Below are positions 17,441-49,501 of a stretch of DNA of 64,000 nucleotides, piece by piece. This DNA is from an uncultured Planctomycetia bacterium (GTDB lineage Bacteria > Omnitrophota > Gorgyraeia > 1-14-0-20-64-10), in NCBI GenBank assembly GCA_964597545.1, contig CAZQXN010000001.1, positions 133,655 to 197,654 on the forward strand, in the 5' to 3' direction. The position numbers and the translations under genes were made by a program. The notes beneath the pieces were generated by a model. It made no database searches, was not told the DNA's origin, and was given only the letters and a program-made list of their open reading frames with translations. Within the stretch, counting starts at the first letter, position 1. The number at the start of each line of letters is the position of its first letter.

Positions 17441-20400
17441 ATGCCAAAACGCCAGGACATTAACAAGGTCATGATCATAGGTTCAGGCCCGATCGTCATC
17501 GGCCAAGCATGTGAGTTCGACTATTCCGGCACCCAGGCCTGCAAGGCGCTGCGATCGCTAGGCTATAAGATCGTCCTGGTGAATTCCAACCCGGCAACGA
17601 TCATGACCGATCCTGGAATGGCTGACGCGACGTATATCGAACCCCTCAACACCCGAGCGCTGGAAGAAGTGCTCGCGGCCGAACGACCGGATGGGCTGCT
17701 GCCGAATCTGGGAGGGCAAACGGGGTTGAATCTCTCCTTTGAGCTGGCCAAGTCCGGCATCCTAAAACAACACGGCACTCAGGTGATCGGCGTCAACATA
17801 GACGCCATTGAGCGGGGGGAGGACCGGACAGCCTTCAAGGAAACCATGAACCGCCTGGGCATCGAGATGCCCAAGAGCGAGGCTGTCAACAACGTGGAAG
17901 ACGCCGAGCGGGTGGCCGAGATCTTGGGGTATCCGGTGGTGGTCCGCCCGGCCTATACCATGGGTGGCACAGGCGGGGGACTCGCCTACAACACAGAGGA
18001 GCTTCGCACTGTAGCTTCCCGGGGTCTTTCTGCAAGCCGGGCCAACCAGGTATTGATTGAAGAGTCGGTGCTCGGATGGGAAGAGTTGGAGTTGGAGGTG
18101 GTCCGGGACAGCAAGAACCAGATGATCACCGTTTGCTTCATTGAAAATGTGGACGCCATGGGGGTGCACACCGGGGACTCCTACTGCACTGCCCCCATGC
18201 TGACGATTGATCCGGCCCTCCAGAAACGGCTTCAGAAGCACTCCTATGACATCGTAGAAGCCATCGGTGTCATCGGGGGCACCAACATCCAGTTTGCACA
18301 TGATCCCAAGACCGGGCGGGTGGTGGTGATTGAGATCAACCCGCGTACCTCCCGATCCTCAGCGCTGGCCTCCAAAGCAACTGGCTTTCCCATTGCCTTT
18401 GTCTCTTCGCTCCTGGCTGGGGGGCTGACCATGGATGAGATCCCCTATTGGCGGGACGGGACGCTCGAGAAGTACACCCCCTCGGGAGAGTATGTGGTGG
18501 TGAAGTTCGCCCGATGGGCCTTTGAGAAGTTCCGAGGGATCGAGGACAAACTGGGTACGCAGATGCGCGCCGTGGGCGAGGCCATGTCGATCGGCAAGAA
18601 TTATAAAGAGGCGCTTCAGAAATCAATCCGGTCGCTCGAGATCAAGCGCTATGGTTTAGGCTTTGCCAAGGATTTCCACCAGAAATCCCTGGACGAACTC
18701 TTCGCGCTGCTGGCCACCCCCACCAGTGAGCGGCAGTTTTTGATGTACGAGGCGCTGCGTAAGGGGGCCGATGTCCAAAAGCTCTATGCGCTCACAGCCA
18801 TTAAGCCGTGGTTCATTGAGCAGATGAAGGCCTTGGTCGAACTGGAGATGGAACTCATCAAGCACCGGGGGGCTTTGCCGCCGGATGATCTCCTCAAGCA
18901 GGCTAAGCAGGATGGTTTTGCCGACAAATACTTAGCACAGATCCTGAACACCAAGGAAGAGGAGATCCGCAACCGGCGCAAGGCCCTTGGGGTGGTAGAG
19001 GCCTGGGAACCGGTCCCGGTCAGCGGCGTGGAGAATGCCGCCTACTATTATTCCACCTACAATGCGCCGGACCGGGTAGCCGTGAGTAAACGAAAGAAGA
19101 TCATGGTCTTGGGCGGAGGCCCCAATAGGATCGGGCAGGGAATCGAGTTTGACTACTGCTGTGTCCATGCGGCTTTTTCCATCCGGGATGCCGGATACGA
19201 ATCGATCATGGTCAACTGCAACCCCGAGACCGTTTCAACCGACTATGACACCTCGGATAAGCTGTACTTTGAACCGCTGACAGTCGAGGATGTCTTAAGC
19301 ATCTATGAGAAGGAAAAACCCGAGGGGGTGATCGTGCAGTTCGGCGGACAAACGCCTCTCAACATTGCGCAGGAGTTGGCCGAGGCCGGGGTGAAGGTCC
19401 TGGGCACCTCCCCGGCTACGATTGATCTGGCCGAGGACAGGGACCGGTTCCGGCAAATGATGCGCAAGCTCAACATCCCGCAGCCGGAATCCGGGATGGC
19501 CAGCAACCTAGAGGAAGCCCTTGAAACTGCCAAGACCATCGGCTATCCGCTGATGGTGCGTCCTTCTTACGTGCTTGGCGGACGTGCCATGGAGGTGGTG
19601 GAAGACGAGGAGATGCTGAAAGAGTACGTTCAGGCAGCGGTGGATGTCTCGCCTGAGCGCCCGATCCTGATTGATCGCTTCTTAGAGAATGCCATCGAGG
19701 CCGAGGCGGACGCGCTGTCCGATGGGACCGATGCATTCGTTCCTGCGGTTATGGAGCATATTGAGTTGGCCGGTGTGCATTCGGGGGACTCGGCCTGCGT
19801 CATTCCGCCTGTCAGCATCCCGCAGCAGCATCTTGACATCATCCGCGACTACACCCGCAAGATCGCCATTGAACTTGGGGTGGTGGGGCTAATGAATATT
19901 CAGTACGCGATCGCCAACGATACCGTCTATGTTTTGGAGGCCAACCCTCGCGCCTCACGCACAGTTCCCTTGGTCTCCAAGGTGTGCAACGTGCCGATGG
20001 CCCGCCTGGCTACACAGTTGATACTCGGCCAGAAGCTCTCGGATTTGAAGCTCACCCACAGCAAGATTTTTCATTTCGGCGTCAAGGAGGCGGTCTTTCC
20101 CTTTAACATGTTCCCTGAAACAGATCCTCTGCTCGGACCGGAGATGCGCTCGACCGGAGAGGTGCTGGGAATGGCGGATTCTTTTGGCTTGGCGTTCTTT
20201 AAAGCCCAGGAAGCCACCCAGCTGATACTCCCACTCAAAGGAGCGGTGCTCTTTACGATCGCCGAAAAGAACAAACCGCAGGTGGTGAAGTCGGCTAGGA
20301 TATTTTCTGAGTTGGGATTCTCCATCCGGGCAACCGAGGGAACACAGCAATTTCTGACAAAGCATGGCATTGCGTCAGAGCTGATTCTAAAGATCGGCCA

Positions 20401-20680
20401 CGGCCGCCCACACATTGTGGATGCCATCAAGAACGGGGAGATTCAATTGGTGGTCAATACCCCCAGCGGCAAGGCAGCCCAAGAGGATGATTCCTACATC
20501 CGCAAGGCCGCCATCAAGTACAAGATCCCTTACATTACGACCCCGGCCGCGGCACTGGCTACCGCCAAAGGGATTGCCGCCCGGAGCAAGGGAGAGGCTG
20601 GGGCGAAATCGCTACAGCGCTATCACCGTGACATCGCCGGAGCCGGGAGCAAGTGCCCGCCCGCTACCGTGGATGCGTAG
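17441..20680 (+). CDS. carB: Carbamoyl-phosphate synthase large subunit (paralog 1, standalone)
   Basis: [37 protein letters not shown] is the canonical CarB N-terminus. Two ATP-grasp halves plus an MGS-like C-terminus. AAGGAG SD sits 7 nt before the ATG at 17441. The TTG at 17411 is rejected. Confidence 0.9.
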   Translation: MPKRQDINKVMIIGSGPIVIGQACEFDYSGTQACKALRSLGYKIVLVNSNPATIMTDPGMADATYIEPLNTRALEEVLAAERPDGLLPNLGGQTGLNLSFELAKSGILKQHGTQVIGVNIDAIERGEDRTAFKETMNRLGIEMPKSEAVNNVEDAERVAEILGYPVVVRPAYTMGGTGGGLAYNTEELRTVASRGLSASRANQVLIEESVLGWEELELEVVRDSKNQMITVCFIENVDAMGVHTGDSYCTAPMLTIDPALQKRLQKHSYDIVEAIGVIGGTNIQFAHDPKTGRVVVIEINPRTSRSSALASKATGFPIAFVSSLLAGGLTMDEIPYWRDGTLEKYTPSGEYVVVKFARWAFEKFRGIEDKLGTQMRAVGEAMSIGKNYKEALQKSIRSLEIKRYGLGFAKDFHQKSLDELFALLATPTSERQFLMYEALRKGADVQKLYALTAIKPWFIEQMKALVELEMELIKHRGALPPDDLLKQAKQDGFADKYLAQILNTKEEEIRNRRKALGVVEAWEPVPVSGVENAAYYYSTYNAPDRVAVSKRKKIMVLGGGPNRIGQGIEFDYCCVHAAFSIRDAGYESIMVNCNPETVSTDYDTSDKLYFEPLTVEDVLSIYEKEKPEGVIVQFGGQTPLNIAQELAEAGVKVLGTSPATIDLAEDRDRFRQMMRKLNIPQPESGMASNLEEALETAKTIGYPLMVRPSYVLGGRAMEVVEDEEMLKEYVQAAVDVSPERPILIDRFLENAIEAEADALSDGTDAFVPAVMEHIELAGVHSGDSACVIPPVSIPQQHLDIIRDYTRKIAIELGVVGLMNIQYAIANDTVYVLEANPRASRTVPLVSKVCNVPMARLATQLILGQKLSDLKLTHSKIFHFGVKEAVFPFNMFPETDPLLGPEMRSTGEVLGMADSFGLAFFKAQEATQLILPLKGAVLFTIAEKNKPQVVKSARIFSELGFSIRATEGTQQFLTKHGIASELILKIGHGRPHIVDAIKNGEIQLVVNTPSGKAAQEDDSYIRKAAIKYKIPYITTPAAALATAKGIAARSKGEAGAKSLQRYHRDIAGAGSKCPPATVDA

Positions 20681-30058: not shown

Positions 30059-30065
30059 TGGGCTC

Positions 30066-33037: not shown

Positions 33038-33436
33038 ATGCCTATACCTAGAATCCTCTTTGTCTGCACTCAGAATGCCGGTCGATCCCAAATGGCTGAG
33101 GCCTTTGCCGGCGTGTTGGGGGGAGGTGTTGTGGAAGCCTTCAGCGCCGGATCCAAACCTGCCGATCAAGTACATCCTCAGGTTGTCCAGGTCATGCTGG
33201 AGCGCGGAATCGATCTTGGCAGCAAGACACCTAAGGGACTGAAGGACCTTCCGGAAGGTGTATTTGATATTGTTGTCGGGATGGGCTGCGAAGATGCTTG
33301 CCCGGCGCAGCGGGCCGGCAAGGTAATCGCTTGGGATATTCCAGACCCCAAAAACCAATCGGTTAAACGGGTGCGGGAAATCCGCGATCAGATTGAGGGG
33401 CAGGTCAAAGTACTCTTAAGGGGGCTCTCAGGCTAG
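33038..33436 (+). CDS. Arsenate reductase / low-molecular-weight protein-tyrosine-phosphatase family (ArsC-LMWP type)
   Basis: ILFVCTQNAGRSQMAEA matches the CX5R(S) P-loop. Start at the internal Met MPIPRILF. Confidence 0.6.
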   Translation: MPIPRILFVCTQNAGRSQMAEAFAGVLGGGVVEAFSAGSKPADQVHPQVVQVMLERGIDLGSKTPKGLKDLPEGVFDIVVGMGCEDACPAQRAGKVIAWDIPDPKNQSVKRVREIRDQIEGQVKVLLRGLSG

Positions 33437-34005: not shown

Positions 34006-34009
34006 GGGG

Positions 34010-34820: not shown

Positions 34821-35609
34821 CTACTGGCTCCCCTTGCATTCCTGCAGAATTTCCTGCGCTGCCTTGACAGGATCCGGAGCCTCTAGGATGGGCCGGCCCA
34901 CCACCAGATAGTCGGCACCCGCCTGAATAGCCGCGGAGGGGCTGGCAGTCCGCTGCTGGTCATCCTTCTTTTTCGGCGCGGCACCTGATGTCTCTTTACG
35001 CGCAGCTGCGGAAAAGGGGTCTGGAGCTTGAAGCCGAATGCCTGGTGTCACAATGATAAAGTCGTCTCCGCAGGTCCACCGCACTGCCTGCGCTTCCTGG
35101 GCAGAGGCCACAATGCCGTTTAGGCCCGCTGATTTGGCAAGCTTGGCCAGATAGAGCACTTGATCTTTCAGGGTCTTGCGCATTCTCAAATCCGCCAAAT
35201 CCTTGCTGGCCATGGAGGTCAGAACCGTCACGCCAATGACAAGGGGTGGTTTGCCCCCTTTGCGGCTGGCCTCCTCCTTGACGGCCTCTACGGTCTTGCG
35301 CATCATGGCAGACCCCCCTTGGATATGCAGGTTGGTCATCCAGACCCCAAGCTGCATGGCTGCTCGGGTTGCTCGGGCCACTGTAGAGGGGATATCGTGG
35401 AATTTGAGATCCAGAAAGATCTTCCCGCCACAGGCGCAAACCGCCTCCACAGCGGCCGGCCCTGCCAGCGTAAAAAGGGAAAGGCCGATCTTGTAATGGG
35501 TAATTCCAAGCGGTGTTAAGCTTTTTACCAGCCGTGTGGCTTCGTCAACCCCCGGCACATCCAGGGCAACGATCAAACGCTCTTGGGGCTTTGGCTTCTC
35601 AGGTGACAC
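34821..35609 (-). CDS. pyrF: Orotidine-5'-phosphate decarboxylase
   Basis: LIVALDVP...IFLDLKFHDIP matches the OMPdecase signature. Confidence 0.75.
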   Translation of the reverse strand: MSPEKPKPQERLIVALDVPGVDEATRLVKSLTPLGITHYKIGLSLFTLAGPAAVEAVCACGGKIFLDLKFHDIPSTVARATRAAMQLGVWMTNLHIQGGSAMMRKTVEAVKEEASRKGGKPPLVIGVTVLTSMASKDLADLRMRKTLKDQVLYLAKLAKSAGLNGIVASAQEAQAVRWTCGDDFIIVTPGIRLQAPDPFSAAARKETSGAAPKKKDDQQRTASPSAAIQAGADYLVVGRPILEAPDPVKAAQEILQECKGSQ

Positions 35610-36588
35610 GCTTGGTTCTCCGCTGTTTCTGGCCCAACGCAGCTTGAGGTATACCTAAAAGCCGCTCGGGCGTCTTAAGTTTCCCGATGAGCTCTCTGGC
35701 AGAGGTGAGCCTGCGGGAAGTGAGGTATCGCTTCAACCCCTCCAGGATCTCCAGGGGCGCCGCGGGATTAATGTAATTGGCGGTGCCCACCTCAACGGCT
35801 GAAGCGCCGCACAGCATGAATTCAACTGCATCCTCGGCCGTCATGATACCACCGATTCCAACCAGCGGCACTTTAGGGAAGGCGCGATGGACTTGCCAAA
35901 CCATGCGCAGCGCAACCGGCTTGATGGCCGGACCGGACAAGCCACCGGTCACCGTGGCAATGCGGGGCCGCCAGCTCTTGGCGTCCACAGCCGTCGCCAA
36001 TAGGGTGTTGATCAGCGAAAGGGCGTCTGCACCGGCCTCCACGGCTGCGCGGGCGGTGGAGGTAATGTCGGTCACATTGGGGGAGAGCTTTACGATGAGC
36101 GGCAGCCGCGTCGCCTTGCGCACACGCTTCACCACCTGGTAGGTGAGCTTGGGGTCTATGCCGAACTCGATGCCGCCCCGCTCGCAGTTGGGGCAGGAGA
36201 TGTTGAGCTCCAGCCCCGCAATCCCCTTTGCCTGACCCAACCGCCGCGCCAAGGCAGCATACTCGGCCACCGATTCCCCGGCCAGATTGACGATGACCTT
36301 GGCCTTTTTGAGACGGCGCAAAAAGGGAAGTTTCTCGGAAAGGAACCGCTCCAATCCCACATTCTGCAGCCCAATCGCATTGAGCATCCCGGAAGCGGTC
36401 TCAAAGATCCGGGGGGAAGGGTTGCCTGGACGGGCTCGAAGTGAGATCGCCTTGGTCACCAACCCCCCTAAGCGATCGACGTTGTAGAGGCGGTGGTACT
36501 CCGGACCATAACCAAAGGTGCCGGAGGCAACCATGACCGGGTTCTGGAGTTTCAGCTTGCCTATGCGGATACTCAGATCAACTGCCAT
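35599..36588 (-). CDS. pyrD: Dihydroorotate dehydrogenase catalytic subunit (class 1B type)
   Basis: NPVMVASGTFGYG...GLELNISCPN...GIGGI. Pairs with pyrK downstream. Confidence 0.8.
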   Translation of the reverse strand: MAVDLSIRIGKLKLQNPVMVASGTFGYGPEYHRLYNVDRLGGLVTKAISLRARPGNPSPRIFETASGMLNAIGLQNVGLERFLSEKLPFLRRLKKAKVIVNLAGESVAEYAALARRLGQAKGIAGLELNISCPNCERGGIEFGIDPKLTYQVVKRVRKATRLPLIVKLSPNVTDITSTARAAVEAGADALSLINTLLATAVDAKSWRPRIATVTGGLSGPAIKPVALRMVWQVHRAFPKVPLVGIGGIMTAEDAVEFMLCGASAVEVGTANYINPAAPLEILEGLKRYLTSRRLTSARELIGKLKTPERLLGIPQAALGQKQRRTKRVT

Positions 36589-36593
36589 TTCCC

Positions 36594-37010
36594 CTACTCC
36601 TTAATCTTAAAGAACTGCATTGCAACCACAGTGCCGATGACGAGGGCTGTGGTAAAGATGCCGCTTAAGTAAGGAGCCAACCACTGCGCTGTAAAGACCC
36701 CCACCCCGATAAAGAAGATGGTCTTGCCTGTCATCAAGGCAAACAGCAATCCATAGTTTAAGTTCCCGCGGCGCTCCAACCAAATGGTTTTAATGCCCTT
36801 TTTGGGGAACCCCCCAAGGTAGCGCCACTTGGCCAACCCATCAATCACCAACCCGGCGCCGATCAAACCCCATCCCCAGGGCCGTAAGGCATCGGAGGCG
36901 ACAATGCCTATCACAAGACCCATCAAAGAGTTGCCGGCAAGGCTTAGGGCGATCAGCTCAAAACTGACCTTTCCCCGGCGCTTCAACCACATCTGCCTTG
37001 GGCTATCCAC
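36594..37010 (-). CDS. Hypothetical small membrane protein (4 TM) embedded in the pyr operon
   Basis: Hydrophobic 138-aa ORF between pyrK and pyrD. Confidence 0.35.
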   Translation of the reverse strand: MDSPRQMWLKRRGKVSFELIALSLAGNSLMGLVIGIVASDALRPWGWGLIGAGLVIDGLAKWRYLGGFPKKGIKTIWLERRGNLNYGLLFALMTGKTIFFIGVGVFTAQWLAPYLSGIFTTALVIGTVVAMQFFKIKE

Positions 37011-37016
37011 GGCTCA

Positions 37017-37112
37017 CCTCCGCAGGGTTTGACCCTTTTGTACATGCGCGCCGCATCGTTCTGTACGAAAGGGTCTGACCCTTTTGTACATGCTGCCCTT
37101 TTGTACAAGGGT
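37017..37112. repeat. Tandem copies of a palindromic element (GGGTYTGACCCTTTTGTACATGC x2 plus a partial third), GGG-variant of the AAAGGGGTCWGACCCCTTT family
   Basis: Seen directly in the pyrK / membrane-protein intergenic space. Each unit folds into a ~12-bp hairpin on the mRNA strand. Confidence 0.55.
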
Positions 37113-38005
37113 TAGGGCCATGCAATCTTCTCTGCCGGAAAGACCGGGCCCTCTGTGCATACGCGTTGAAAGCGTGCGTGCGATCCGGCCGGCTCATCTG
37201 CCATCTCCACCGTACATCCCCAGCAGCAGCCCATGCCGCATCCCATCCGTTCCTCCAGAGAGACCTGAGCGCTCACCCTTCGCTCTCTGGCCAGTGCTGC
37301 TGCGGCTCTCATCATCGGGGTGGGACCACAAATGTACAGTTGGGTTGACTGCCGATCACCATCCGCCGGCCGCAAGGCCTGCCGGAGCAGACCCACCACT
37401 GTGCCCCGGTGCCCCAACGTGCCGTCATCTGTCGCGATCTGAACCGAAACCCCAAGCTTGCTAAACTGCGCCGCCCCAATGACCCAGCCTTTGGTCTTAG
37501 CACCCAAGAAGGCAGTGACGCTTCGCCTGCCTCGGGCAAGCTGCTTGGCCAGCATGTAAAGGGGTGGAATGCCAACCCCTCCCCCGACAAGATACGCTGT
37601 TTTGGTGCCCGGCGGAACCGCAAAGGGCCGCCCCAGGGGACCCAAGAAGTCGATCTTGGACCCTGCCAATACGTGGGTAAGGGCTGTTGTGCCCATTCCC
37701 ACCACTTTGTAGACAAAATCAAGGGTCCCCTTCTTGGGATCGGCATCCAGCAGGCTGAAAGGCCTTCTCAGAAACGGGGCCGGTTCTGCTTTTGCGCTGG
37801 GGCACAGCACATGGATGAACTGTCCGGGCCGAGCCCGCTTGGCCGCCCGGGGTGACTTTAAGCGCACCCAGTAATGATTGCGAGCAATCTTGCGCTGGAG
37901 CAGGACCGGGGCCTTCTCCTGGATCATGCCGGACGGGAGTGTGCGCCCCGCCATCTCCTCAGACCCCCTCCAGATACGCCTTGGCGTATTTCTTGTAGAA
38001 GGCAA
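37112..38005 (-). CDS. pyrK: Dihydroorotate dehydrogenase electron-transfer subunit (FAD/NAD-binding, 2Fe-2S)
   Basis: Ferredoxin-reductase-like fold. C-terminal CGMGCCWGC cysteine cluster. Confidence 0.75.
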   Translation of the reverse strand: MPSTRNTPRRIWRGSEEMAGRTLPSGMIQEKAPVLLQRKIARNHYWVRLKSPRAAKRARPGQFIHVLCPSAKAEPAPFLRRPFSLLDADPKKGTLDFVYKVVGMGTTALTHVLAGSKIDFLGPLGRPFAVPPGTKTAYLVGGGVGIPPLYMLAKQLARGRRSVTAFLGAKTKGWVIGAAQFSKLGVSVQIATDDGTLGHRGTVVGLLRQALRPADGDRQSTQLYICGPTPMMRAAAALARERRVSAQVSLEERMGCGMGCCWGCTVEMADEPAGSHARFQRVCTEGPVFPAEKIAWP

Positions 38006-38984
38006 CCATCCGAGCTACCCCCTCCTCCAACCCAACACAGGCAGACCACCCGGTCGCGGCTTTGAGCTTCCCTGTATCGATGGTGAAATCCCCTGTCTCG
38101 ATCTGCTCGTAATCTTTGGGCCAGGGGGTATGGATGATTTTGCCCGAGCCCACCGCCTTGACCACCGCTTCCACCATCTCCCGGAAGGTGCGGGATTGGC
38201 CGTGACCGCAGTTTACAACCTCCCCGGTCGTCTGATCAGAGGCCAGGGCAGCCAAGATAGCGTCGGCAAGGTCGGTCGCATAGAGGTAATCCCTGCGCTG
38301 ACTGCCGTCACCAAAGATTGTAATCTCCTTGTCCTCCATGGCGCAGCGCATGAACCACCCGGGCAGGGAGTACTTGTTGTGTTTGATCTGCTGGCGCTCT
38401 CCGTAGGGGTTGGTCAGCCGCAGCACAACGGTCCGGATGCCATAATCCCGATGATAAAAGAGGTGGTATTTCTCTGTGGTCAACTTGTGGATGCCATACA
38501 GGGTCAAGGGATTGGTGGGGTGCTCCTCGGTAACGGGGTTATGCAGGATCTTGCCCAGCACCATCCGGGAGCTGGCAAAAAGCACCTTCGCATCGGCATT
38601 GTATTTTCGGCAGGCCTCCAACACCACCAAGGGCCCCCGGCAGTTAACATCCAAGTCTTCAAAGGGGATCTTGCCGCTGTCGATATAGCTGATCTGTCCG
38701 GTGAGGTTGATGATGAAGTCCTGCCCGACCACCAGATCTTTTACGAGCGCCTCATCTCGGATGTCTCCTCGCACCACGCGCAGGGTGTGTTGGAATGGGG
38801 CGACATTGGCGGGGTTGCCTCCATACCGGGGATCCAGGGAGTCCAGCACTGTGATGGCGGCATTGAGCCCGGCCAGGCGCGCAATGACATTGCTGCCGAC
38901 AAAACCTAACCCCCCGAGGATCAAGAGCTTCTTGCCCCGGAAATGGTCTTGAGGAAATTGCGGGGTATCGTGCGCCGCGGTCAT
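37959..38984 (-). CDS. NAD-dependent epimerase/dehydratase (extended SDR) inserted in the pyr operon
   Basis: [16 protein letters not shown] matches the GxxGxxG motif. A YxxxK motif follows. The ATG at 38984 overlaps the carB2 TGA stop in an ATGA arrangement. The low-complexity N-terminal extension in the track is rejected. Confidence 0.6.
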
Positions 38985-41900
38985 TTGTGGGCCGCCGCCC
39001 GGCGCCGGGGCTTGCGGGGCCGGCTGCTGCTTATTTTGATCTTCTTGTGCCACTCCTGTACGGAGCAAACCTCAAACCCCTTGGAGCGCAGCGCGTAAAT
39101 CCCTGCGGCTAAGGCATCCGCTCCGGGGATCGTAGTGACACAGGGAATTCCTCGGGAAACCGCCAGGGAGCGGATCCGGGTTTCATCGACCTTGGTAGCC
39201 TTGCCGGAGGGGGTATTGATGATCAGATCCACCTTTTCATCCCTTAGGAAATCCAGCACGTGCGGCCGTCCTTCATAGATCTTCTTTACCACTTGGGTCT
39301 CCACATGGTGCCGCTTTAAGTAATCGGCAGTCCCCTGTGTCGTCACAATCTTAAAACCCATCGTCACCAACTGCCGGGTAAATCCCGCGATGAGCGGTTT
39401 ATCCTGATCTTTGACGCTCAAAAAGACCGTCCCGGATAAAGGCACCTGCTGATAAGCGGCCATCTGCGACTTGGCAAAGGCCAATCCGAAGCTGGCATCA
39501 ATGCCCATGACCTCGCCGGTGGAACGCATCTCAGGCCCTAAGATGATATCAACACCAAAGAAGCGGGAAAAAGGAAAAACCGATTCCTTAACAGCGGTAA
39601 AGGGCGGGGTAATCTCCTTTGTCGCCCCCTGCCCGGCCAAGGTATCCCCTGCCATGATCTTGGTGGCAATCTTGACCATCGGCATGCCGATGGCCTTGGC
39701 AATAAAGGGAACCGTTCGGGAAGCCCGAGGGTTGACCTCAAGAACATACACCTCGGCCCCCTTGACCGCAAACTGGATGTTCATCAGCCCCCGGACATTG
39801 AGCTCCTGGGCCAAGCGGCGGCTGGCTGCCCGAATCTCCTCCACCACCTTGGGTGCTAAGGTGTGGGGCGGCAGGGCCATCGCCGCATCTCCTGAGTGTA
39901 CACCCGCGGCTTCGACATGTTCCAAAATTCCACCTACCAGAGAAGTTTTCCCGTCTGCAATCATGTCGACATCCACCTCGACGGCATCCTCCAGGAACTT
40001 GTCCACCAAGACCGGGCGCTCCGGAGGGGCCTGGACCGCCGATGCCATGTAGGCGCGCAAATCGGTCTCGTCGTAGACAATCTCCATGGCCCGCCCACCC
40101 AACACATAGGAGGGGCGCACCAGGACCGGGTAGGTGAGCTGCTTGGCAATTTCTAGGGCCTCGCCCGGAGTCCGGGCAGTTCCGTTGGGGGGCTGCTTGA
40201 GCTTGAGGCGATGGATCATCTCGCTGAACTTCTCCCGGTCCTCGGCCCGGTCAATCTCCTCTGGGGCGGTTCCGATGATGGGGACCCCGGCTTGGCTTAA
40301 CGCCAGGGCGAGGTTGAGGGGGGTTTGACCCCCAAGCTGAACAATGACCCCGGCCGGTCGCTCAGCCTCAACAATGTTGAGGACATCCTCCAGGGTCAAC
40401 GGTTCGAAGTAGAGGTCATCAGCGGTATCGTAATCGGTGGAAACCGTTTCAGGGTTGGAGTTGACCATGATGGTGCGATAGCCGGCCTCCCTCAAGGCAA
40501 AGACTGCCCGGACACAGCAGTAGTCAAATTCAATCCCCTGTCCGATCCGGTTGGGGCCGCCGCCTAAGATCATGATCTTCTTCTGGGCTTGAGCGTCACG
40601 CGGTGTGGGGGCTGTACGCTCAGGAGTCGCTGCGCTTTCGAGGGCAGCCGCCACCGCTGGGCGCTCATAGGTCGAGTAGTAATAGGGGGTAAAAGCTGCG
40701 AACTCCGCAGCGCAGGTATCCACCATATAGAAGAAGGGCCGGATGTTGTGCTGAAGCCTCAAGGCCCGGATCTCCATCTCAGACTCACCCCAGAGAAAAC
40801 CCAGCTGCCGATCACTGAAGCCGTATTGCTTGGCCGTCCATATCAACTCCGGGGTGGGCTTGGCCCCCTGGAGCTGGCGTTCCATCTCCACAATCTGCCG
40901 AATCTCCCGGATGAACCAGGGGTCGATTTGGGTGAGCGCAGTCAACGTTTCGTCCGAAAAACCATCCAGCATGGCTTGTCGGATTCGAAAAATTCGTTCT
41001 GCATGAGGGATGCGGAGCCTCTCTTTGAGCGCCTCAGCCCCTAGCGGTGAGGACTCCTTCCCCCCTGCCCCCAACCCGAAGTGACCGGTCTCTAAGGACC
41101 GTAACCCTTTCTGCAGCGCTTCCTTAAAGGTCCTGCCAATGGCCATGGCCTCTCCAACCGACTTCATCTGGACCGTTAGGGTGGGATCCGCCGCTGGAAA
41201 CTTCTCAAAGGCAAAACGCGGAATCTTGACAACACAGTAATCCAGGGTGGGTTCAAAAGAGGCTGGGGTCTGACGCGTGATATCGTTGGGAAGCTCATCT
41301 AGGGTGTAGCCCACTGCAAGCTTGGCCGCAATCTTGGCAATGGGAAAACCGGTTGCCTTGGAGGCCAGGGCTGAGGAGCGCGAGACCCTTGGGTTCATCT
41401 CGATCACCACGCGGCGCCCGGTTGCAGGGTCCACCGCAAACTGAATGTTGGAACCCCCGGTCTCAACCCCGATCGCCCGAATGCAGGTAATGGCTTCATT
41501 GCGCATCGCCTGATATTCCTTGTCGGTCAAGGTCTGGGCCGGGGCCACGGTGATGGAGTCGCCGGTGTGCACCCCCATGGGGTCCAAGTTCTCAATCGAG
41601 CAGATGATCACGACGTTGTCGTTCTTATCCCGCATGACCTCCAACTCAAATTCTTTCCACCCCGCTACCGATTCTTCAATGAGCACTTCAGAGACCATGC
41701 TCAGGCTCAACCCCGCCTCGGTCGTGGCCTGAAACTCTTCCCAGTTGTAGGCTATGCCTCCGCCGGTTCCGCCCAAGGTGTAGGCCGGCCGGATCACCAC
41801 CGGTAAACCGATGGCTTCAGCCACTACCTTGGCCTCCTGCAGAGTGTGGGCAACACCGCTGCGAGGTACATCCAACCCGGCCTCCTGCATGGCCCGCTTA

Positions 41901-42295
41901 AAATCGTCACGATCCTCAGCCTTCTGAATGGCCTGCTGGTCGGCGCCGATCATCTCTACGTTGTAGCGCTTGAGCGCCCCACTCTGGGCTAACTGCATGG
42001 CGACATTTAAGCCGGTTTGTCCGCCCAGGGTAGGCAGCAGGGCATCCGGGCGCTCCCGAGCGATGACCTTCTCGATCGCTTCAGGGGTAATGGGTTCAAT
42101 GTAGGTTCGATCCGCAAATTCCGGATCGGTCATGATGGTGGCGGGGTTGGAGTTGACCAGAACCACCGAATAGCCCTCTTCTCTCAAAGCCTTGCAGGCT
42201 TGCGTCCCGGAATAGTCGAACTCGCAGGCTTGGGAGATGATGATCGGACCCGAGCCGATGATCAGAATCTTTTTGAGGTCAGTCCGCTTGGGAAT
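38981..42295 (-). CDS. carB: Carbamoyl-phosphate synthase large subunit (paralog 2, pyrimidine-operon copy) with non-canonical start
   Basis: Full-length CarB (...[37 protein letters not shown]...). An in-frame TAA at 42320..42322 lies 9 codons upstream of the conserved PKRTD. No ATG/GTG/TTG occurs between them. The only candidate start is ATT at 42295 with GGAGA 7 nt upstream. The track starts at an internal TTG at 42187. Confidence 0.8.
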
Positions 42296-43013
42296 GGTCT
42301 GGTCTCCGCATGGCCGGGCTTACCGGCAGATCAAACTCCAACACCGGCATGGTATGAAATTTTCCCTGGCCTGCCCGGTAGGTGGCAAAGAGGGGTGCAA
42401 AGGTCTGCCAGGCCGACTCGCTCCGGGTCAGGCGGGCCCGAGCAGTAATGATCCAATTGGTCCCTGTCTGCACAATGGCCAGTGCGATCTCCTCTGCGAA
42501 TAGCCGCTCCGGAGGCGAGCCTTCGGGCAGTGTGAGGCGCAGCTCCTTGCTGTACAGAAACCAGGGGCCGCTGGCATCGGGCGCCTGGTCAGGCTTCTCC
42601 TCTGTCTGAGTCCATCCTGCGGTGTGCAGCTTGACGCCGACCGGCAGTCGAAGCAGCAGGTGCAGTTGGGCGTCCGGCTCCTCTGACGGCTCCCACTGTT
42701 CTGGGACGCTTTCTACCACAAGCTTGACCAAAGCGACCTCTCCGGGTTCCAGCTTCCGCTCCGGCGCCTCAAAGCGCACTCGGATGGGCGATGGGGCTGT
42801 CTCAACCGTCGGAGCCGGAGAGGGTGTCTCAGCCGACATCTCTTGGGCCGGTGCCGGCTGCGTAGCCGGTCTGGCCCGCCGGGCACCAAACTCAAGGGGT
42901 TCAAGAACCGCCTCTTCCTGTGGCTCGGGCAACGGGGTCGAGGCATGCCGCAACACCACCACCGCAGCGATCACTCCCACAGTCAGCAAAATGCCGATTG
43001 CGATCTTCTTCAT
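42279..43013 (-). CDS. Hypothetical membrane-anchored Pro-rich protein between carA and carB2
   Basis: N-terminal TM ([17 protein letters not shown]), Pro/Glu-rich linker, then ~150-aa domain. No recognisable family. Confidence 0.35.
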
Positions 43014-44137
43014 TGCCTCTTGCCCTCCTGCATGAGCTTTACAAAACGGTCAAACAGATACTGGGAATCGTGCGGACCCGGGGAAGCCTCAGGGTGATAT
43101 TGAACCGAAAAAAGGGGAAGTTTTTTGTGCCGGATCCCCTCGCAGGTTTTGTCATTGAGGTTGATGTGCGTCATCTCCACATCCCTTCCGGGAATGGAGT
43201 CAGGGCGCACACAAAAACCGTGGTTCTGTGCGGTAATCTCCACTTTGCGGGTGCCCAGATCCATGACTGGGTGGTTGGCCCCGTGATGCCCGAACTTCAG
43301 CTTAAAGGTCTTACCCCCCAGGGCCAATCCCAGTACCTGGTGGCCCAGACAAATACCAAAGATCGGAATTTTACCGATGCACTCCCGCACGGTGGAGATT
43401 AAGTACGGCACCCCTTCGGGGTCACCCGGACCATTGGAGAGGAACAGCCCGTCTGGTTTGAGTGCCAAGATCTCTTGCGTTGAGGCTGTTGCCGGAGCCA
43501 CCGTCACTCGACAGCCCTTTTGGGTCATCATGCGGGGGATGTGGTCTTTCATGCCGCAGTCGATCGCCACCACGCGGGGTCTGACCTCTTTTTTGAGGTG
43601 AAAGGGGTCTGACCCCTTTGGGGTTTTCTCTGACCACTCGTAAACTTGCTGGCAGGTGACCTCCTTAACCAAATCCCGGCCCACCAGTCCAGGCAAAGCT
43701 TGGGCCTTCTGCACCAACCGCTTGGCATCGCCATCCTCTGTGGAGAGCACCCCCTTGAGAGCCCCTTTCTCTCTCAAGAGAAGGGTGAGCCTCCGGGTGT
43801 CGATCCCCTGAATGGCAACTGTCCCCTGATGGCTCAGCCACTCCTCCAAGGCCCCCTCTTGCTGCCAGTTGGAGGCAATCGGGCTTAAGGCGCGCACAGC
43901 AAATCCCTCTGCTTGTGGCTTTGCCGACTCTGTGTCGCTAGAATTGATCCCATAATTGCCGATAAGAGGATAGGTCATCACCACGATCTGCCCGCGGTAA
44001 GAAGGGTCGGTTAAGATTTCCTGGTAGCCGGTCATGGCGGTGTTAAAGATCACCTCCCCGGACACCTCGCCCGAGGCGCCAAACCCCTCGCCGCAGAAGA
44101 CGGTTCCATCCTCCAGGGCCAGCATTGTTTTCTTCAT
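43010..44137 (-). CDS. carA: Carbamoyl-phosphate synthase small subunit (glutamine amidotransferase)
   Basis: MKKTMLALEDGTVFCGEGFGASGEVSGEVIFNTAMTGYQEILTDPSY. GATase triad region. The start is taken at the ATG at 44137 by N-terminal homology. The GTG at 44161 is rejected. Confidence 0.85.
   Translation of the reverse strand: MKKTMLALEDGTVFCGEGFGASGEVSGEVIFNTAMTGYQEILTDPSYRGQIVVMTYPLIGNYGINSSDTESAKPQAEGFAVRALSPIASNWQQEGALEEWLSHQGTVAIQGIDTRRLTLLLREKGALKGVLSTEDGDAKRLVQKAQALPGLVGRDLVKEVTCQQVYEWSEKTPKGSDPFHLKKEVRPRVVAIDCGMKDHIPRMMTQKGCRVTVAPATASTQEILALKPDGLFLSNGPGDPEGVPYLISTVRECIGKIPIFGICLGHQVLGLALGGKTFKLKFGHHGANHPVMDLGTRKVEITAQNHGFCVRPDSIPGRDVEMTHINLNDKTCEGIRHKKLPLFSVQYHPEASPGPHDSQYLFDRFVKLMQEGKRQ
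43576..43619. repeat. Two copies (one diverged) of the AAAGGGGTCTGACCCCTTT palindromic element inside the carA coding region
   Basis: GGGGTCTGACCTC at 43576..43588 and the exact 19-mer at 43601..43619. Both are in frame, encoding ...PKGSDPFHLKKEVRPR... in the CarA inter-domain linker. Confidence 0.65.
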
Positions 44138-44138
44138 A

Positions 44139-44278
44139 GGGGACGGTCCATTTTGGGACACACCAGGAGCTGAGATGTCCTCTGTCGAGTAAAACCCGCT
44201 ATTGATCCAAGCATCATTCTGTCTATCCCGCCATGTTTACCAGAAACGGCCTGGTGTGTCCCAAAATGGACCGTCCCC
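44139..44278. repeat. Perfect 29-bp inverted repeat (GGGGACGGTCCATTTTGGGACACACCAGG ... reverse complement) with 82-bp spacer, abutting the carA start codon
   Basis: Arms at 44139..44167 and 44250..44278 are exact reverse complements. On the mRNA strand the distal arm ends 1 nt before the carA AUG. Confidence 0.7.
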
Positions 44279-44287: not shown

Positions 44288-45535
44288 TTAGAAGAGGGTC
44301 AGCTGTTTTTCCTTTTCCGGCGCCCCCGATTCCTTTCCCTTGAACTTGAAGATGTTAACCTCGCCATACTCCCCGTCGTAGCCGGGCAAAATCTCCACCT
44401 CCCCCTTGCGCACCCGAAGGATCCCTTCAGCCAGCTTCTGGGGAAGCTGTTTGCGCAGCTCCTCGGCCGGCAAATCGATTAGGATCTCAAACTCGGTGCC
44501 GACCCGCCCAACCAAATCCAGATATTCCTGCTGCACCCTTTTGGACTGTACCCCTACCTCGCGCGCCTCAGAGATGATCTGATCCAGCGGCACCATGCGC
44601 TTAAAGGGGATTGCCCCTTCCGGGGTCTGTCCTGCGGGGCGGTCGGCCAAAGCCTGCACCCGGTTCATGACTCCGACGGTGATCTTCTTACCGCAGGCCG
44701 GGCATCGAGTGCCCTGCCGGGCCGTCTCCTCGGGTGAAACCCGAACCTTGCAGGGGCGGTGGCCGTCAAAGTGATACTTCCCCTCTTCAGGGAAGAACTC
44801 CACCGTATACAGGAAGCGCTTGGCATCCTTGGTCTTCAAGATCTTTGCGACCTCGCGGTACTCCATCTTGCAGTCAAAGACGTTGGCCTCCCGACCGATG
44901 CGGCTGACGGAATGAGAGTCTGAATTGGAGATGAGCGTATAGCGGTCAAGGCCGCTCAAGCGCCAATTCATCTCAGGGTCTGAGGAAAGCCCGGTCTCTA
45001 AGCAGTGGATCTCGCGCGCCTGGTCTCCGAAACACTCTTCTACCGTGTCAAAGCCTGAGTAAGAGCCGAAGATGGAGAACCATGGCGTCCAGGCATGAGC
45101 AGGCACAATGAGGATTTCGCTGGAGATGTCCAAAACGAGCTTCACCATGTCCCGAGCAGAGAGGCGCAGGAGCGGCCGTCCATCTGAGTTTAAGTCACCG
45201 TAGCGGGCCAGCTGCTTGTTAGCCGCCTCGGCAATCTCTAGGCTCGGGAAGATGAGGACCGTATGGATACGCTTGTTCTTTCCGCCGACCAAGAATTGGT
45301 TGTTCACCTCGGCGGTCGGTACAAAATGCACCCCGCAGTACTCATAGAAACCACCCGGGGTGACTTTGAGTTTGGTTTTAAGCTCCAGCATCCAGAGGGG
45401 ATGCGTACAGTCTCCGGTTCCAAGCAAATGGACCCCTTTGTACCGGGCCCACTGGGCCAACAGGTCCAGATCCAGCCGGGTACTGGTGGCGCGCGAGTAC
45501 CTGGAGTGCAGGTGAAAATCGGCAACGAGTCTCAT
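44288..45535 (-). CDS. PHP-domain protein, endonuclease Q-like (TIGR00375-type)
   Basis: N-terminal DFHLHSRYSRATS...LLGTGDCTHP is the PHP metal-binding motif. C-terminal zinc-finger CPACGKKI. Confidence 0.5.
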   Translation of the reverse strand: MRLVADFHLHSRYSRATSTRLDLDLLAQWARYKGVHLLGTGDCTHPLWMLELKTKLKVTPGGFYEYCGVHFVPTAEVNNQFLVGGKNKRIHTVLIFPSLEIAEAANKQLARYGDLNSDGRPLLRLSARDMVKLVLDISSEILIVPAHAWTPWFSIFGSYSGFDTVEECFGDQAREIHCLETGLSSDPEMNWRLSGLDRYTLISNSDSHSVSRIGREANVFDCKMEYREVAKILKTKDAKRFLYTVEFFPEEGKYHFDGHRPCKVRVSPEETARQGTRCPACGKKITVGVMNRVQALADRPAGQTPEGAIPFKRMVPLDQIISEAREVGVQSKRVQQEYLDLVGRVGTEFEILIDLPAEELRKQLPQKLAEGILRVRKGEVEILPGYDGEYGEVNIFKFKGKESGAPEKEKQLTLF

Positions 45536-45602: not shown

Positions 45603-45914
45603 TTACGGCCAGGTCAGGAAATCGAGGAGCTCGGTGGTGTGTGACGCCGGGTCCTCGGATGCCGGCGACCGGGACGGCCGGGCAAGGTATCGAGCGATGG
45701 AGCGCACCCGCTTCTTGGCCAGCCGGCCGTGCCGAGTTCCAGGAAAGGTTTCGGCCAGCAGGCTGTAGAAGTGATAGGCGATTTCCATCTGCTGCTTTGA
45801 CAGAGCGACGTCTGCCTGGTGCTGCAACTTCCGGGCCTCGTGGATCCCCTCCGTTGAGGCGCCGCTTCCCATCAGCAAGACGCTTAACAGCAATCCCAGC
45901 ATCAGCAAGCGCAT
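45603..45914 (-). CDS. Hypothetical small secreted protein
   Basis: Signal-peptide-like N-terminus MRLLMLGLLLSVLLMGSGAS. No family assignment. Confidence 0.3.
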   Translation of the reverse strand: MRLLMLGLLLSVLLMGSGASTEGIHEARKLQHQADVALSKQQMEIAYHFYSLLAETFPGTRHGRLAKKRVRSIARYLARPSRSPASEDPASHTTELLDFLTWP

Positions 45915-45929: not shown

Positions 45930-46619
45930 TCACTCTCTGAACGTAAGCTCTTCCACTATGACCCCGTCCGGCACAGTAAAGACAAAGGACTCAGGAGGGA
46001 TCGGGGCATTCACTTCGATATCGTAAAATCGATGGATCAAAATCTCTTTGTCCTCTGAGGTCAGCAGTGCGGTGCGACGCGTTAAACCATCCCCCTCTGC
46101 CACATCAACCCGAACGGTCTTGATCTTAACTGGGGCGGTTTCGTTCACCGCATCGAGCGGATCGGCCTCAAAACGCAGGAGGGTCTGACCTTCAGCCTCA
46201 ATCCGTTCGATAAACCGAAGGGTATCTAATTGAAGATCCGCAAAGGGCTGGTGCGGCCCAGGGGGGAGCGGTGGATTGGTGATTTTGTAAATGGTGTTGT
46301 CTTCAATCCCATGCTGCCACTCTACCTTGCCGTCGTCCACCAACAGCTGGCTGTTCTCGACCTCGCCTGCATATCGGATCTCCAGGCGCCTGAGGTTAGG
46401 CCGTTGGTAAAAGAGCTTCCCCTCCAGCTCGATGGGCTCCTCCCCCTCCTCCTTGACCTCCAGAGAGAATCGAGCTTTGTAGCTCGTGAGGGCATCGACC
46501 TTGGCTTGAAGTGCCTCGGCCTCCTCTGGAAGGGCTGGGCTTTGAGCCCAGGCAGCAAGGGCAACGCCCATAACCAGCAACACCACACACAATGTCCTAT
46601 AAGCCAGATCGCGCTTCAT
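45930..46619 (-). CDS. LolA-like (outer-membrane lipoprotein carrier fold) secreted protein
   Basis: Start at [10 protein letters not shown] with a signal peptide, directly abutting the pyrC stop. beta-rich LolA/LppX-like pattern. The long N-terminal extension in the track is rejected. Confidence 0.4.
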   Translation of the reverse strand: MKRDLAYRTLCVVLLVMGVALAAWAQSPALPEEAEALQAKVDALTSYKARFSLEVKEEGEEPIELEGKLFYQRPNLRRLEIRYAGEVENSQLLVDDGKVEWQHGIEDNTIYKITNPPLPPGPHQPFADLQLDTLRFIERIEAEGQTLLRFEADPLDAVNETAPVKIKTVRVDVAEGDGLTRRTALLTSEDKEILIHRFYDIEVNAPIPPESFVFTVPDGVIVEELTFRE

Positions 46620-47923
46620 GTCACCACCCCTTCCATGAGCCGGCCGCCACTGACCCTCTGCCTGCCGGCCACCAACACCTCTGTCACTTGCCCTTTCATG
46701 CGCCAGCCCAAGAAGGGAGAGTTGGTGCCCCTTGAAGCAAAGTTGCCGGCCTCCACTGTCCAATCTGCCTTGGGGTCAAAAACCGCTATATCTGCAACAG
46801 CGCCCGCGTTGAGTGTCCCCCGGTCGATGCCGAGCAGCTCGGCCGGCCGCGCGGCAAGCGCCTCAACCATCCTGGAAAGGGTAAGCTGCTTGCGATGCAC
46901 CAACTCCGTCAAGAGCGCCCCGAGGGCGGTCTCCAGCCCCATCGCTCCGAACGGGGCATGGGACAACCCCAACTCTTTTTCTGCCTGCGCATGCGGCGCA
47001 TGGTCGGTGGCCACCACATCCAAGGTGCCGTCGGCCAATCCCCTGCGCAGGGCTTCTTGATCCTTCTGGGACCTCAGCGGCGGCTTCATCTTAAAGCGGG
47101 CATCATAGGTGCTCAGCGCCTCTTCGGTCAGGGTTAGGTGGTGCGGAGTCACCTCGGCTGTGACCTGAACTCCTCTGGCCTTGGCGGCGCGAATCATTTC
47201 GACACCGGCTGCGGTGCTCACATGCGCAATGCGAAGCTTTCCGCCGACGGCCTCTGCCAGAAGGATGTCTCGCGCAATCATGATGGTCTCAGATTCAGCG
47301 GGGATGCCAACCAACCCTAAGCGCGTGGACGTCACCCCCTCATGCACCACCCCCTGACCGGAGAGGGTATGGTCTTCGCAGTGATCGATGATGGCAAGGC
47401 CTGTCATCCGGCTGTACTCCAGTGCCCGCCGCATCAGCCCCGCATTTTGAACCGGCATCCCGTCATCAGAAAAACCGACCGCCCCAGCCGCCTGGAGCTC
47501 TGACATCTGAGTTAGGGTCTCTCCCTGCAGTCCCATGGTCACCGCCGCAATCGGCAGCACCTGGATAAGTCCCACCTTGGTTGATTCATTTCTGACGTAT
47601 TCCACCACCGTTGCCGAGTCCACCACCGGATCGGTGTTGGCCATGGTGCAGACCGTGGTGAAACCCCCTTGAAGGGCAGCCAGGGATCCGGTTTGAATGG
47701 TCTCTTTGTGCTCTTGGCCTGGAGAGCGAAAGTGCACGTGCAAATCAATGAAGCCGGGGCTGACCACCTTGCCCTTGGCATCTAAGATCTCGGCGCCGTT
47801 GGCCTTTAGATTTTTGCCGACCTTGGAGACCTTGCCCTTCTCAATGAGCAGGTCGGTTGTTTCATCGACCCCTTGCGCCGGATCGATGAGGCGGCCCCCT
47901 TTGATCAACAACGACTTGCTCAT
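46616..47923 (-). CDS. pyrC: Dihydroorotase
   Basis: [10 protein letters not shown]...[15 protein letters not shown]...metal-binding His/Asp pattern of amidohydrolases. Confidence 0.85.
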
Positions 47924-48894
47924 GGGCGCACCTGCTGGGGTGCGGGGGCATCCGCTCCGGACTCTTCCTCGGCGGTCACTCCAGCCACCAGGTACAGCAC
48001 CGCCATCCGTACCGCAATGCCGTTGGTGACCTGCTCCAAGATTACCGATTGAGGTCCGTCGGCCACATCCGGGGCGATCTCGATGCCCCGATTGACCGGT
48101 CCGGGGTGCATGACAATCAGATCCGGTTTGGCCCGAGCCAGCTTCTTCTGGGTCAATCCATAAAGCCGGGTGTACTCCCTAAAGGAGGGGATGTGGCGCT
48201 CCTTCTGCCGCTCCAGCTGCAGCCGAAGGGCCATGACCACATCGGCTTGGGCTAGGGGCTTGTCCAGATCGTAGCTGACCTTGACCCCCAAGGCTTCTAT
48301 GGTGGGGGGGACCAGGGTGGGCGGGCCGCAGACGGTGACGTCGGCGCCCAGCTTGGTCAGACCCCACAGATCTGAGCGGGCCACGCGTGAATGCAGGATA
48401 TCCCCGACGATCACCACTTTGAGCCCCTCAATCCGTCCCTTCTTTTCTTGAATGGTGAACAGATCCAACAGCCCCTGGGTGGGGTGTTCGTGGGCGCCGT
48501 CGCCGGCATTGATCACGTTGGATCGGATTGCGCGCGCCACTGAGGCCGGGACACCGCTGGCGCTGTGGCGCACCACCACCACATCCACCCGCATCGCCTC
48601 GAGATTCCGAGCGGTGTCTACGACGCTTTCTCCCTTGACCAAACTCGAGGAGGAGCCTTGCACTTGCAGGATATCGGCGGAGAGCCGCTTGGCTGCCAGC
48701 TCGAAGGAGGCCCGTGTGCGGGTAGAGGGCTCCAAGAAGCAAAGGGCTACGGTCCTGCCCCGAAGGGCCGGAACCTTCTTGATGGCCCTGCCTGAGACCT
48801 CCTTGAACGCTTTGGCCTGCTGAAGCAGGAGTGTCAGCTCCTCTTTGCTTAACTCCTCTAATCCCAGCAGGTCCTTCCGAGTCCAGCGGGTCAT
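47920..48894 (-). CDS. pyrB: Aspartate carbamoyltransferase catalytic subunit
   Basis: [22 protein letters not shown] matches the STRTR carbamoyl-phosphate-binding motif. HPxQ region. Confidence 0.85.
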
Positions 48895-49445
48895 GTCACC
48901 ACCTCCTCAATCACAACCTCGTCCAAGCTGTCTACCTCAGTCAGGCGAACCTGAACAAGCTCCTGCTTGGCGGTTGGCAAGTTCTTTCCGACGTAATCCG
49001 CCCGTATCGGCAGCTCTCGATGTCCCCGATCCACCAGCACAGCCAACTCAATCACCTCGGGCCTTCCTAAGTCGGTCAGGGCATCCATTGCCGCGCGAAT
49101 CGTCCGGCCCGTAAAGAGGACATCATCTACAATCACCACCCGGCGCCCGGTCACATCGTAGGGAATCTCAGTCCCATGCACCACAGGATTGGACCCGCTG
49201 TGGTTGAGGTCATCCCGATAGAGGGTGATGTCCAGAGTTCCCAGGGCAACGGTGCGTTCGCTGATTTGACGAAGGAGTTTGTCCAAACGCTGTGCCAGCA
49301 CTTCGCCTCGAGATCGGATGCCGATCAAACAGATGCCCTCTGAATCGTGATCCTTCTCAAGGATTTCGTGGGCAATGCGGGTGAGTACCCGCTGGATCCC
49401 ATCGGCATCCAGGGCTTGGGTTTTAGTGCGGGTCTTGGCACTCAT
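48891..49445 (-). CDS. pyrR: Bifunctional pyrimidine operon regulator / uracil phosphoribosyltransferase
   Basis: PRTase-type protein ([19 protein letters not shown]). The start is taken at the ATG at 49445. The TTG at 49457 lies inside the terminator U-tract and is rejected. Confidence 0.8.
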
Positions 49446-49454
49446 GAAAGGGCA

Positions 49455-49501
49455 CAAAAAAATGGCTCACCCCCGCCTGACTCTAGGCGCAGATGAACCA
49501 T
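49455..49501 (-). terminator. Attenuator terminator of the pyrR leader
   Basis: mRNA-sense AUGGUUCAUC...GGUGAGCCAU forms a 10-bp stem including 2 G-U pairs, followed by UUUUUUU immediately before the pyrR start. Confidence 0.5.

Follow-up and report, generated by a model that had tools for sequence, protein, structure and literature searches.

An ATT codon as the probable start of the native carbamoyl-phosphate synthase gene carB2 in an Omnitrophota pyrimidine operon

How is a core metabolic gene kept if its reading frame lacks a canonical start codon? The question is raised by carB2, a gene for the large subunit of carbamoyl-phosphate synthase (38981..42295, minus strand), in a stretch of 64,000 nucleotides (nt) of an uncultured bacterium of the Omnitrophota (contig CAZQXN010000001.1, positions 133,655 to 197,654 of the forward strand), hereafter the window. 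The window also holds a paralogue of the type found in Desulfobacterota, carB1 (17441..20680, plus strand), which starts with ATG 8 nt after a Shine-Dalgarno (SD) sequence, AAGGAGA. A preliminary description of this DNA had offered three explanations: initiation at AUU, silencing of carB2 by a change from ATG to ATT with carB1 as the functional copy, and a sequencing error. The comparisons reported here make it very probable that carB2 is a functional gene and that the ATT at 42295-42293 is its initiation codon.

On the minus strand, the carB2 frame runs from an in-frame TAA (42322-42320, preceded 5′ to 3′ by CTGCCGG) through the SD-like GGAGA (42307-42303) and a 7-nt spacer, CCAGACC, to ATT (42295-42293), which is followed by CCC AAG CGG ACT GAC, reading I-P-K-R-T-D, and then by CTC AAA AAG ATT CTG ATC ATC GGC. 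Every element of this arrangement had been listed in the preliminary description, which gave no strand, and the codons confirm its statement that the conserved CarB N terminus MPKRTD is encoded here as ATT-CCC-AAG-CGG-ACT-GAC. The triplets between TAA and ATT (GCC CGG CCA TGC GGA GAC CAG ACC) contain no start codon, and the TAA, nine codons 5′ of the ATT (-27), rules out an N-terminal extension. From ATT the frame stays open for 1104 codons, to a TGA at 38983-38981. No in-frame ATG, GTG or TTG occurs between the TAA and codon 37, a TTG at 42187, and a start at this codon, or at the internal Met or Val used in public gene calls, would remove a conserved 21-residue N-terminal segment, which in the 120 CarB homologues compared directly follows M/V-P-K-R. 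The duplex of GGAGA with the CCUCC anti-SD was calculated at -6.6 kcal/mol; values of -6 kcal/mol or below were reached by 10 of 29 window genes. RNA folding around the start gave a minimum free energy of -46 kcal/mol compared with a mean of -50 kcal/mol for shuffled sequences (z = +1.06), and thus no structured element but, if anything, weaker folding than in the controls, and an Rfam scan of the window returned three tRNAs only, with no PyrR-binding or other leader at the gathering threshold. The 64-kb window was also surveyed for further genes lacking a canonical start. None was found, large gaps between stop and start being explained by overlaps with upstream genes, so within these 64 kb ATT use does not show up as a general feature.

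The start was next placed against those of homologous genes and of the gene directly upstream, a 244-amino acid open reading frame (ORF) designated X (42279-43013, minus strand), which lies between carA and carB2 and whose TGA stop (42281-42279) falls 14 nt beyond the A of the carB2 ATT. As called, 113 of the 120 best CarB homologues begin with M/V-[PAS]-[KR]-R, three (P0008, P0102 and P0117) are called with a longer N terminus upstream of this motif, and three are called truncated: P0001, which has ATT at the start position, P0049, which has ATC, and P0058. The last was rejected as a start-codon change, its truncation being due to a run of N. The orthologous loci, whose comparison the preliminary description had recommended, carry an ordinary start at exactly the codon aligned with the ATT. 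This codon is GTG in L097, L099 and L100 (76-78% identity), in which the X stop lies at +14 and forms the same 17-nt overlap as in the window, and ATG in L098, L004 and L022 (74-77% identity), in which the X stop lies at +5 and the overlap is 8 nt (ATGCCTAA). The ATT thus stands where the orthologues have their start. A wider background of 58 carB loci in which the N-terminal motif was found (L004-L084, from a scan of genome contigs with carB2; mostly distant carB of other phyla, L022 alone being close) contained canonical starts throughout (ATG 52, GTG 4, TTG 2), and the same scan gave no further members of the ATT lineage. Judged from these alignments, weak starts (GTG in L097, L099 and L100) are already common in this carB sub-clade. 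Since GTG is the codon in the nearest relatives that share the overlap geometry, the single step from ATG to ATT assumed in the preliminary description is not established, although its placing of the ATT at the start codon held; the route could have been GTG to ATG to ATT.

The closest sequences available for comparison were L001 and L002, Joint Genome Institute (JGI) metagenome contigs from samples 3300009105 and 3300009311, assembled at a different centre from the window and representing a sister lineage. They encode P0001, the closest CarB2 homologue (96% identity), which in its public call has 1050 amino acids and is truncated at the N terminus; the call in the window's own source assembly (P0136, 1061 amino acids, beginning MVLVNSNP) is truncated as well. 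Both contigs carry the same ATT and GGAGA as the window (TAAgcccAgccatgcGGAGAccagaccATTcccaag), and their start region, which reads TAAgcccAgccatgcGGAGAccagaccATTcccaagcgg, differs from that of the window at a single base, 18 nt 5′ of the ATT. From X to the SDR/NAD-dependent epimerase gene that follows carB2 (hereafter the SDR gene), 408 of 5055 aligned positions differ between the window and L001, with 225 of the differences in carB2 (approximately 7% nucleotide divergence). The longest identical run in this 5-kb comparison is 126 nt, from -19 to +106 around the ATT, and is suggestive of constraint on the carB2 initiation region.

Rates of nonsynonymous (dN) and synonymous (dS) substitution between the window and L001 were calculated by the method of Nei and Gojobori. 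Of the five genes compared, carB2 had the lowest dN/dS (0.077; dS 0.258, dN 0.020), followed by the SDR gene (0.093; dS 0.310, dN 0.029), pyrC (0.103; dS 0.324, dN 0.034), carA (0.119; dS 0.524, dN 0.062) and X (0.222; dS 0.377, dN 0.084). Third codon positions hold 166 of the 225 carB2 differences (74%), and neither lineage has a stop, frameshift or indel over the 1104 codons. When 225 substitutions were placed at random in carB2, with transitions weighted as observed, in 5000 neutral simulations, the mean number of amino-acid changes was 148 (minimum 122), compared with 41 observed, and the ORF remained intact in 0.66% of runs. CarB2 matches the carB equivalog models over its full length, NF003671 with 1672 bits (cut-off 599; residues 2-1081) and TIGR01369 with 1501 bits (cut-off 1027), a match that was taken as covering both ATP-grasp halves together with the oligomerisation and MGS-like domains; the Pfam domains of P0001 are CPSase_L_D1/D2/D3 and MGS. 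The nearest CarB2 homologues are Omnitrophota carB (73-96% identity), and by this relationship carB2 is the vertically inherited, native Omnitrophota copy. By parsimony, both lineages inherited the ATT, so that selection has acted on carB2 as a protein-coding gene throughout the time it has had this codon. The substitution pattern demonstrates that strong purifying selection has persisted since the ATT arose, and, to judge from the dN/dS of 0.077, CarB2 is probably enzymatically active.

These data bear directly on the two explanations in which the ATT is not used. A sequencing or assembly error that hides a true ATG would require only a single G-to-T change, and the window belongs to a metagenome-assembled genome. 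The identical ATT is nevertheless present in two contigs from two other samples and another centre, in a lineage with 225 carB2 differences, and the same error in separate projects at one functionally critical base is not credible. Because the ATT was inherited by two diverged and independently assembled genomes, an error is excluded for practical purposes, and the G-to-T miscall listed in the preliminary description is refuted. In favour of silencing, with carB2 as a recent pseudogene or untranslated relic and carB1 supplying all carbamoyl-phosphate synthase activity, are the missing canonical start codon, the approximately 1-2% of the output of AUG that AUU gives in E. coli reporters (10.1101/063800), and another intact carB, 22 kb away, that has an ATG and a strong SD. 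Silencing is set against an ATT older than the split from the L001 lineage (dS 0.26), since which dN/dS has been 0.077 with the ORF intact on both sides, and against the simulations, in which neutral drift predicts approximately 148 amino-acid changes rather than 41 and leaves the ORF open in fewer than 1% of runs. In addition, the gene in question is the native copy, stands beside the only carA in the window and has the SDR gene coupled to its stop codon through an ATGA overlap. Silencing was accordingly judged quite improbable, and the suggestion that carB1 is the functional copy and carB2 a silenced one is unsupported by the selection data, the intact frame and the place of carB2 in the pyr operon. 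Initiation at AUU, the remaining option of the preliminary description, is supported by the ATT shared with the sister lineage, its alignment with GTG and ATG starts and the strong purifying selection. On these alignments, the ATT is real and heritable and stands at the start position of the orthologues, and no canonical start gives a complete protein.

The second copy, carB1, is 50% identical to carB2 and passes the same carB equivalog models. Its best match is a sister copy with 95% identity (P0138, encoded by contig L096 at 233-3472), after which identities fall to 80-83%, and those of its matches that are named are carB of Desulfobacterales or Thermodesulfobacteriota; there is no carA adjacent to it. 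From this pattern, carB1 was probably acquired horizontally as a second copy. The order of genes in L096 is as in the window, namely carB1, UbiA, permease-Usp, pyrE-like, response regulator and pyrF. Comparison of carB1 with the L096 copy gave a dN/dS of 0.053 and a dS of 0.57, approximately twice that of the neighbouring genes (0.26-0.31). Since this synteny is shared and the dS of the neighbours matches that of L001, the sister lineage keeps both carB paralogues. By these estimates carB1 is under purifying selection. It does not look like a copy that took over from a dead carB2. The interval downstream of carB1 differs between these close relatives by an insertion or deletion: in the window, approximately 9.4 kb (~20700-30060) with methyltransferase, WavE-like and other glycan-type genes separates carB1 from UbiA (30063-30932), whereas in L096 (3472-3565) a UbiA-family gene directly follows carB1.

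How AUU initiation would work is suggested by the overlaps around carB2, which form the chain carA-(ATGA)-X-(17 nt)-carB2-(ATGA)-SDR. The preliminary description had carA and the SDR gene translationally coupled to carB2; the ATGA overlap agrees with this for the SDR gene, while on the upstream side the coupled ORF would be X and not carA. Coupling by termination-reinitiation is common for the subunits of complexes (PMC6728339, PMC10666635, PMC12548453) and depends on genes that overlap or lie very close together (PMC10666635, PMC12548453). The X/carB overlap is of this kind, at 17 nt in the window as in L097, L099 and L100 and at 8 nt in L098, L004 and L022. No SD-like sequence precedes carB in L097, L099 and L098 (duplex energy approximately 0), and L100 and L022 have GGAG. 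The relatives lacking an SD, together with the conserved overlap with X, suggest that in this clade carB depends largely on coupling for its initiation. A compensatory gain of an SD in carB2, also considered, was not demonstrable, as L100 and L022 have GGAG with canonical starts. In the mechanism that we propose, the initiator tRNA would read the AUU (near-cognate, and weak as a start in E. coli), and the GGAGA at its 7-nt spacing would aid initiation. Ribosomes translating X would traverse the carB2 ribosome-binding site and stop 14 nt past the AUU; their passage would keep the site unfolded and permit local re-initiation. The net outcome would probably be a lower output of CarB2 that is still tied to the translation of carA and X, and such an output may be tolerable or useful given the second, foreign-type carB1. 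In E. coli, AUU is a proven start of infC and pcnB; in reporters, the near-cognate initiators AUU, AUC and AUA yield approximately 1-2% of the AUG level (10.1101/063800). An ATC-initiated dnaA was demonstrated by N-terminal proteomics in Deinococcus (PMC2830850).

Other ways of using this region were weighed against AUU initiation. CarB2 could be made as an X-CarB fusion through a programmed +1 frameshift, since X overlaps carB2 by 17 nt and carB2 lies in the +1 frame relative to X, or it could start at one of two near-cognate codons just downstream of the ATT, AAG (codon 3) and CTG (codon 11). The fusion is contradicted by the relatives with the same overlap geometry, whose aligned codon is an ordinary GTG or ATG, which means that carB has its own initiation in this clade; by the N-terminal membrane or signal helix of X, which is incompatible with a cytoplasmic CarA-CarB complex; and by the lack of an evident slippery or shift-prone motif in CCAGACCATTCCCAAGCGGACTGA. 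The downstream codons fit the GGAGA poorly, its spacing being optimal for ATT and not for AAG or CTG, and these routes together were given a very slim chance, below even that of silencing. A different issue is whether the AUU, if used, is an adaptive regulatory device, acting through growth-rate- or initiation factor 3 (IF3)-dependent control as in infC or by tuning down the dosage after the gain of carB1, or merely a tolerated weak start. Adaptation is favored by the conservation of ATT and SD in both lineages, inside the longest identical run of the 5-kb comparison, by the occurrence of carB1, among Omnitrophota matches, in the ATT lineage only (the next matches fall to 83%), by the weak carB starts already frequent in the clade (GTG in L097, L099 and L100), and by the precedent of AUU-based regulation in infC, for which PMC2830850 cites the original study. 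Against it, the co-occurrence of ATT and carB1 rests on one lineage, the ATH (ATA, ATC or ATT) starts found elsewhere are sporadic singletons, consistent with tolerated and slightly deleterious variants, and neither an IF3 gene nor an initiator tRNA is present within the 64-kb window. An adaptive role thus appears doubtful, with the odds on the side of a tolerated start. On the evidence of one lineage, the presence of carB1 exactly where the ATT occurs would fit relaxed or tuned-down expression of carB2. Several points also weigh against AUU initiation itself. L001 is identical to L002, so the evidence from the sister contigs counts as one lineage; the 126-nt run is marginally significant once the strong conservation of the N-terminal protein sequence is allowed for; and the support for AUU as the carB2 initiator is comparative throughout. 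AUU is a poor initiator in E. coli, the SD of carB2 is moderate at its calculated duplex energy and similar SDs occur in L100 and L022, which have canonical starts, and coupling is best documented experimentally for distances of -8 to +10 nt (PMC10666635), a 17-nt overlap being less studied.

The frequency of such starts was examined among carB genes at large. The ATC of P0049 (contig L003; 69% identity) marks the only other non-canonical lineage in the 120 best homologues. L003 (ENA ERZ21828362 contig-100_3395, position 5839) is an independent Omnitrophota carB in which 7 nt separate the carA stop from the ATC that follows it; no in-frame canonical start is present upstream of the ATC, and the public call is truncated to 1032 amino acids. 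A metagenome scan of 241 million records with the degenerate pattern I-P-[KR]-R...GxGPIxIxQAxEFDYSG gave 11 matches with ATH at the carB start, in eight of which the frame offers no canonical start between the preceding stop and the ATH. An upstream ORF ends at most 15 nt away in four of the 11 (L085, L088, L091 and L092), and in L085 this ORF is carA, with a ATTCCTAA overlap. L091, L092 and L095 are short ORFs and possibly defective. Three matches (L087 at 1862, L090 at 1337 on the minus strand, and L093 at 4437) are carB1-like, being 72-75% identical to carB1, have a conserved GTG three codons 5′ of the ATH and share aatGAGGTG(g/a)t(t/c)(g/a)ccAT(C/T)CC(A/G)AA(A/G)CGC. Either the GTG would be a start that adds three residues before I-P-K-R, or GAGGTG would be an SD for an ATT or ATC start; the three were rejected as clean ATH cases, as the upstream GTG may be the real start. 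From this survey, ATH starts in carB appear to be rare and sporadic and to occur repeatedly, though not exclusively, in coupled contexts. A literature search found no report of an AUU-initiated carB or of unusual start-codon usage in Omnitrophota.

The locus as a whole is a complete pyr operon on the minus strand, with carA 0.7 kb upstream of carB2. From its 5′ end, it comprises a phosphoribosyltransferase gene (pyrR/upp-like, 48891-49457), pyrB (47920-48894), pyrC (46616-47923), three ORFs without a Pfam family (45930-46763, 45603-45914 and 44288-45535), carA for the small subunit (43010-44161; TIGR01368, 503 bits), X, carB2, the SDR gene (37959-38984), a pyrK-like gene (37112-38005), pyrD (35599-36588), pyrF (34821-35609), a response regulator gene (34010-34819) and a pyrE-like phosphoribosyltransferase gene (33433-34134). 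The true start of carA may be an ATG a few codons inside the listed ORF, as the L001 call has 370 amino acids. X gave no match to a Pfam or NCBIfam family. It consists of an N-terminal hydrophobic helix, a low-complexity linker rich in Pro, Glu and Ala and a conserved C-terminal half, and 15 homologues were found, of which those named or placed are all in Omnitrophota carA-X-carB loci (including L001, L004 and L097-L100); its dN/dS of 0.22 indicates that X is under purifying selection. The SDR gene lies between carB2 and pyrK in L001 also and is absent from L097, L100 and L004, in which pyrK directly follows carB, a distribution that marks the SDR gene as an insertion into the pyr operon specific to this lineage. 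Among the ORFs between pyrC and carA, the 415-amino acid ORF at 44288-45535 scored 196 bits with TIGR00375, below the cut-off of 326.6 bits, and has Pfam MJ0043_C in L001; it is kept at the same position in L001 and L098 and represents an uncharacterised family within the pyr operon. Between the pyrK-like gene and pyrD, approximately 520 nt (36589-37111) contain no long ORF in an operon that is otherwise tightly packed.

Among characterized systems, carB2 most resembles E. coli infC and pcnB, which are likewise conserved chromosomal genes with an AUU start, an SD upstream and the codon kept in close relatives, and are missed by standard gene callers. In infC, however, the AUU serves as sensor in an autoregulatory loop, IF3 discriminating against AUU, and is conserved across many phyla, whereas the ATT of carB2 is confined to one shallow Omnitrophota lineage. 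An IF3-sensed autoregulatory AUU of the infC type was therefore rejected for carB2: the ATT is limited to the window and the L001 lineage, relatives with 74-78% identity have GTG or ATG, and the sequence offers no conceivable feedback link to IF3. Deinococcus dnaA (ATC) and rpsL (CTG) are comparable in being core genes with a near-cognate codon at the start of the orthologues, found through N-terminal conservation and misannotated (PMC2830850); they differ in having peptide evidence and in being conserved across a genus or family, the carB2 case being known from comparison of sequences. The overlap chain carA-X-carB2-SDR, the relatives without an SD and the heteromeric enzyme recall coupled overlapping pairs (PMC6728339, PMC10666635, PMC12548453), although the classical overlaps that have been tested are -4, -1 and -8 with canonical starts, and carB2 has AUU at -17 (phase 1). 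A genome with two carB paralogues, both intact and one inside the pyrimidine operon, also has its parallel. Duplicated carbamoyl-phosphate synthases are known, for example the pyrAA/pyrAB and carA/carB pairs of Bacillus; unlike these, carB1 lacks a neighbouring carA, resembles Desulfobacterota copies and lies outside any arginine operon.

Taken with these systems, carB2 adds to the known class of conserved non-canonical ATH start codons and reveals no new mechanism. A broader proposal, that carB initiation in this clade proceeds mainly by termination-reinitiation from X or carA and so relaxes the need for a canonical start, accounting for the fixation of GTG, ATT and ATC at one site in separate lineages, and that the ATT in the window is an adaptive down-tuning of native CarB after the gain of the Desulfobacterota carB1, is put forward as speculation and is rather unlikely. 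If it were true, the locus would lend itself naturally to tests of restart independent of the start codon and of dosage compensation following gene transfer. For annotation, the consequence is practical: the public calls of CarB2, truncated to 1061 amino acids in the source assembly and to 1050 amino acids in the JGI relative, would be read as a defective enzyme, and the coding sequence should start at the ATT. For biology, where the interest is modest, carB2 offers a well-controlled comparative example of a core metabolic gene that appears to be kept functional with AUU, as indicated by independent assemblies, purifying selection and a homologous start, and its overlapping-ORF context points to translational coupling as what makes such starts viable.

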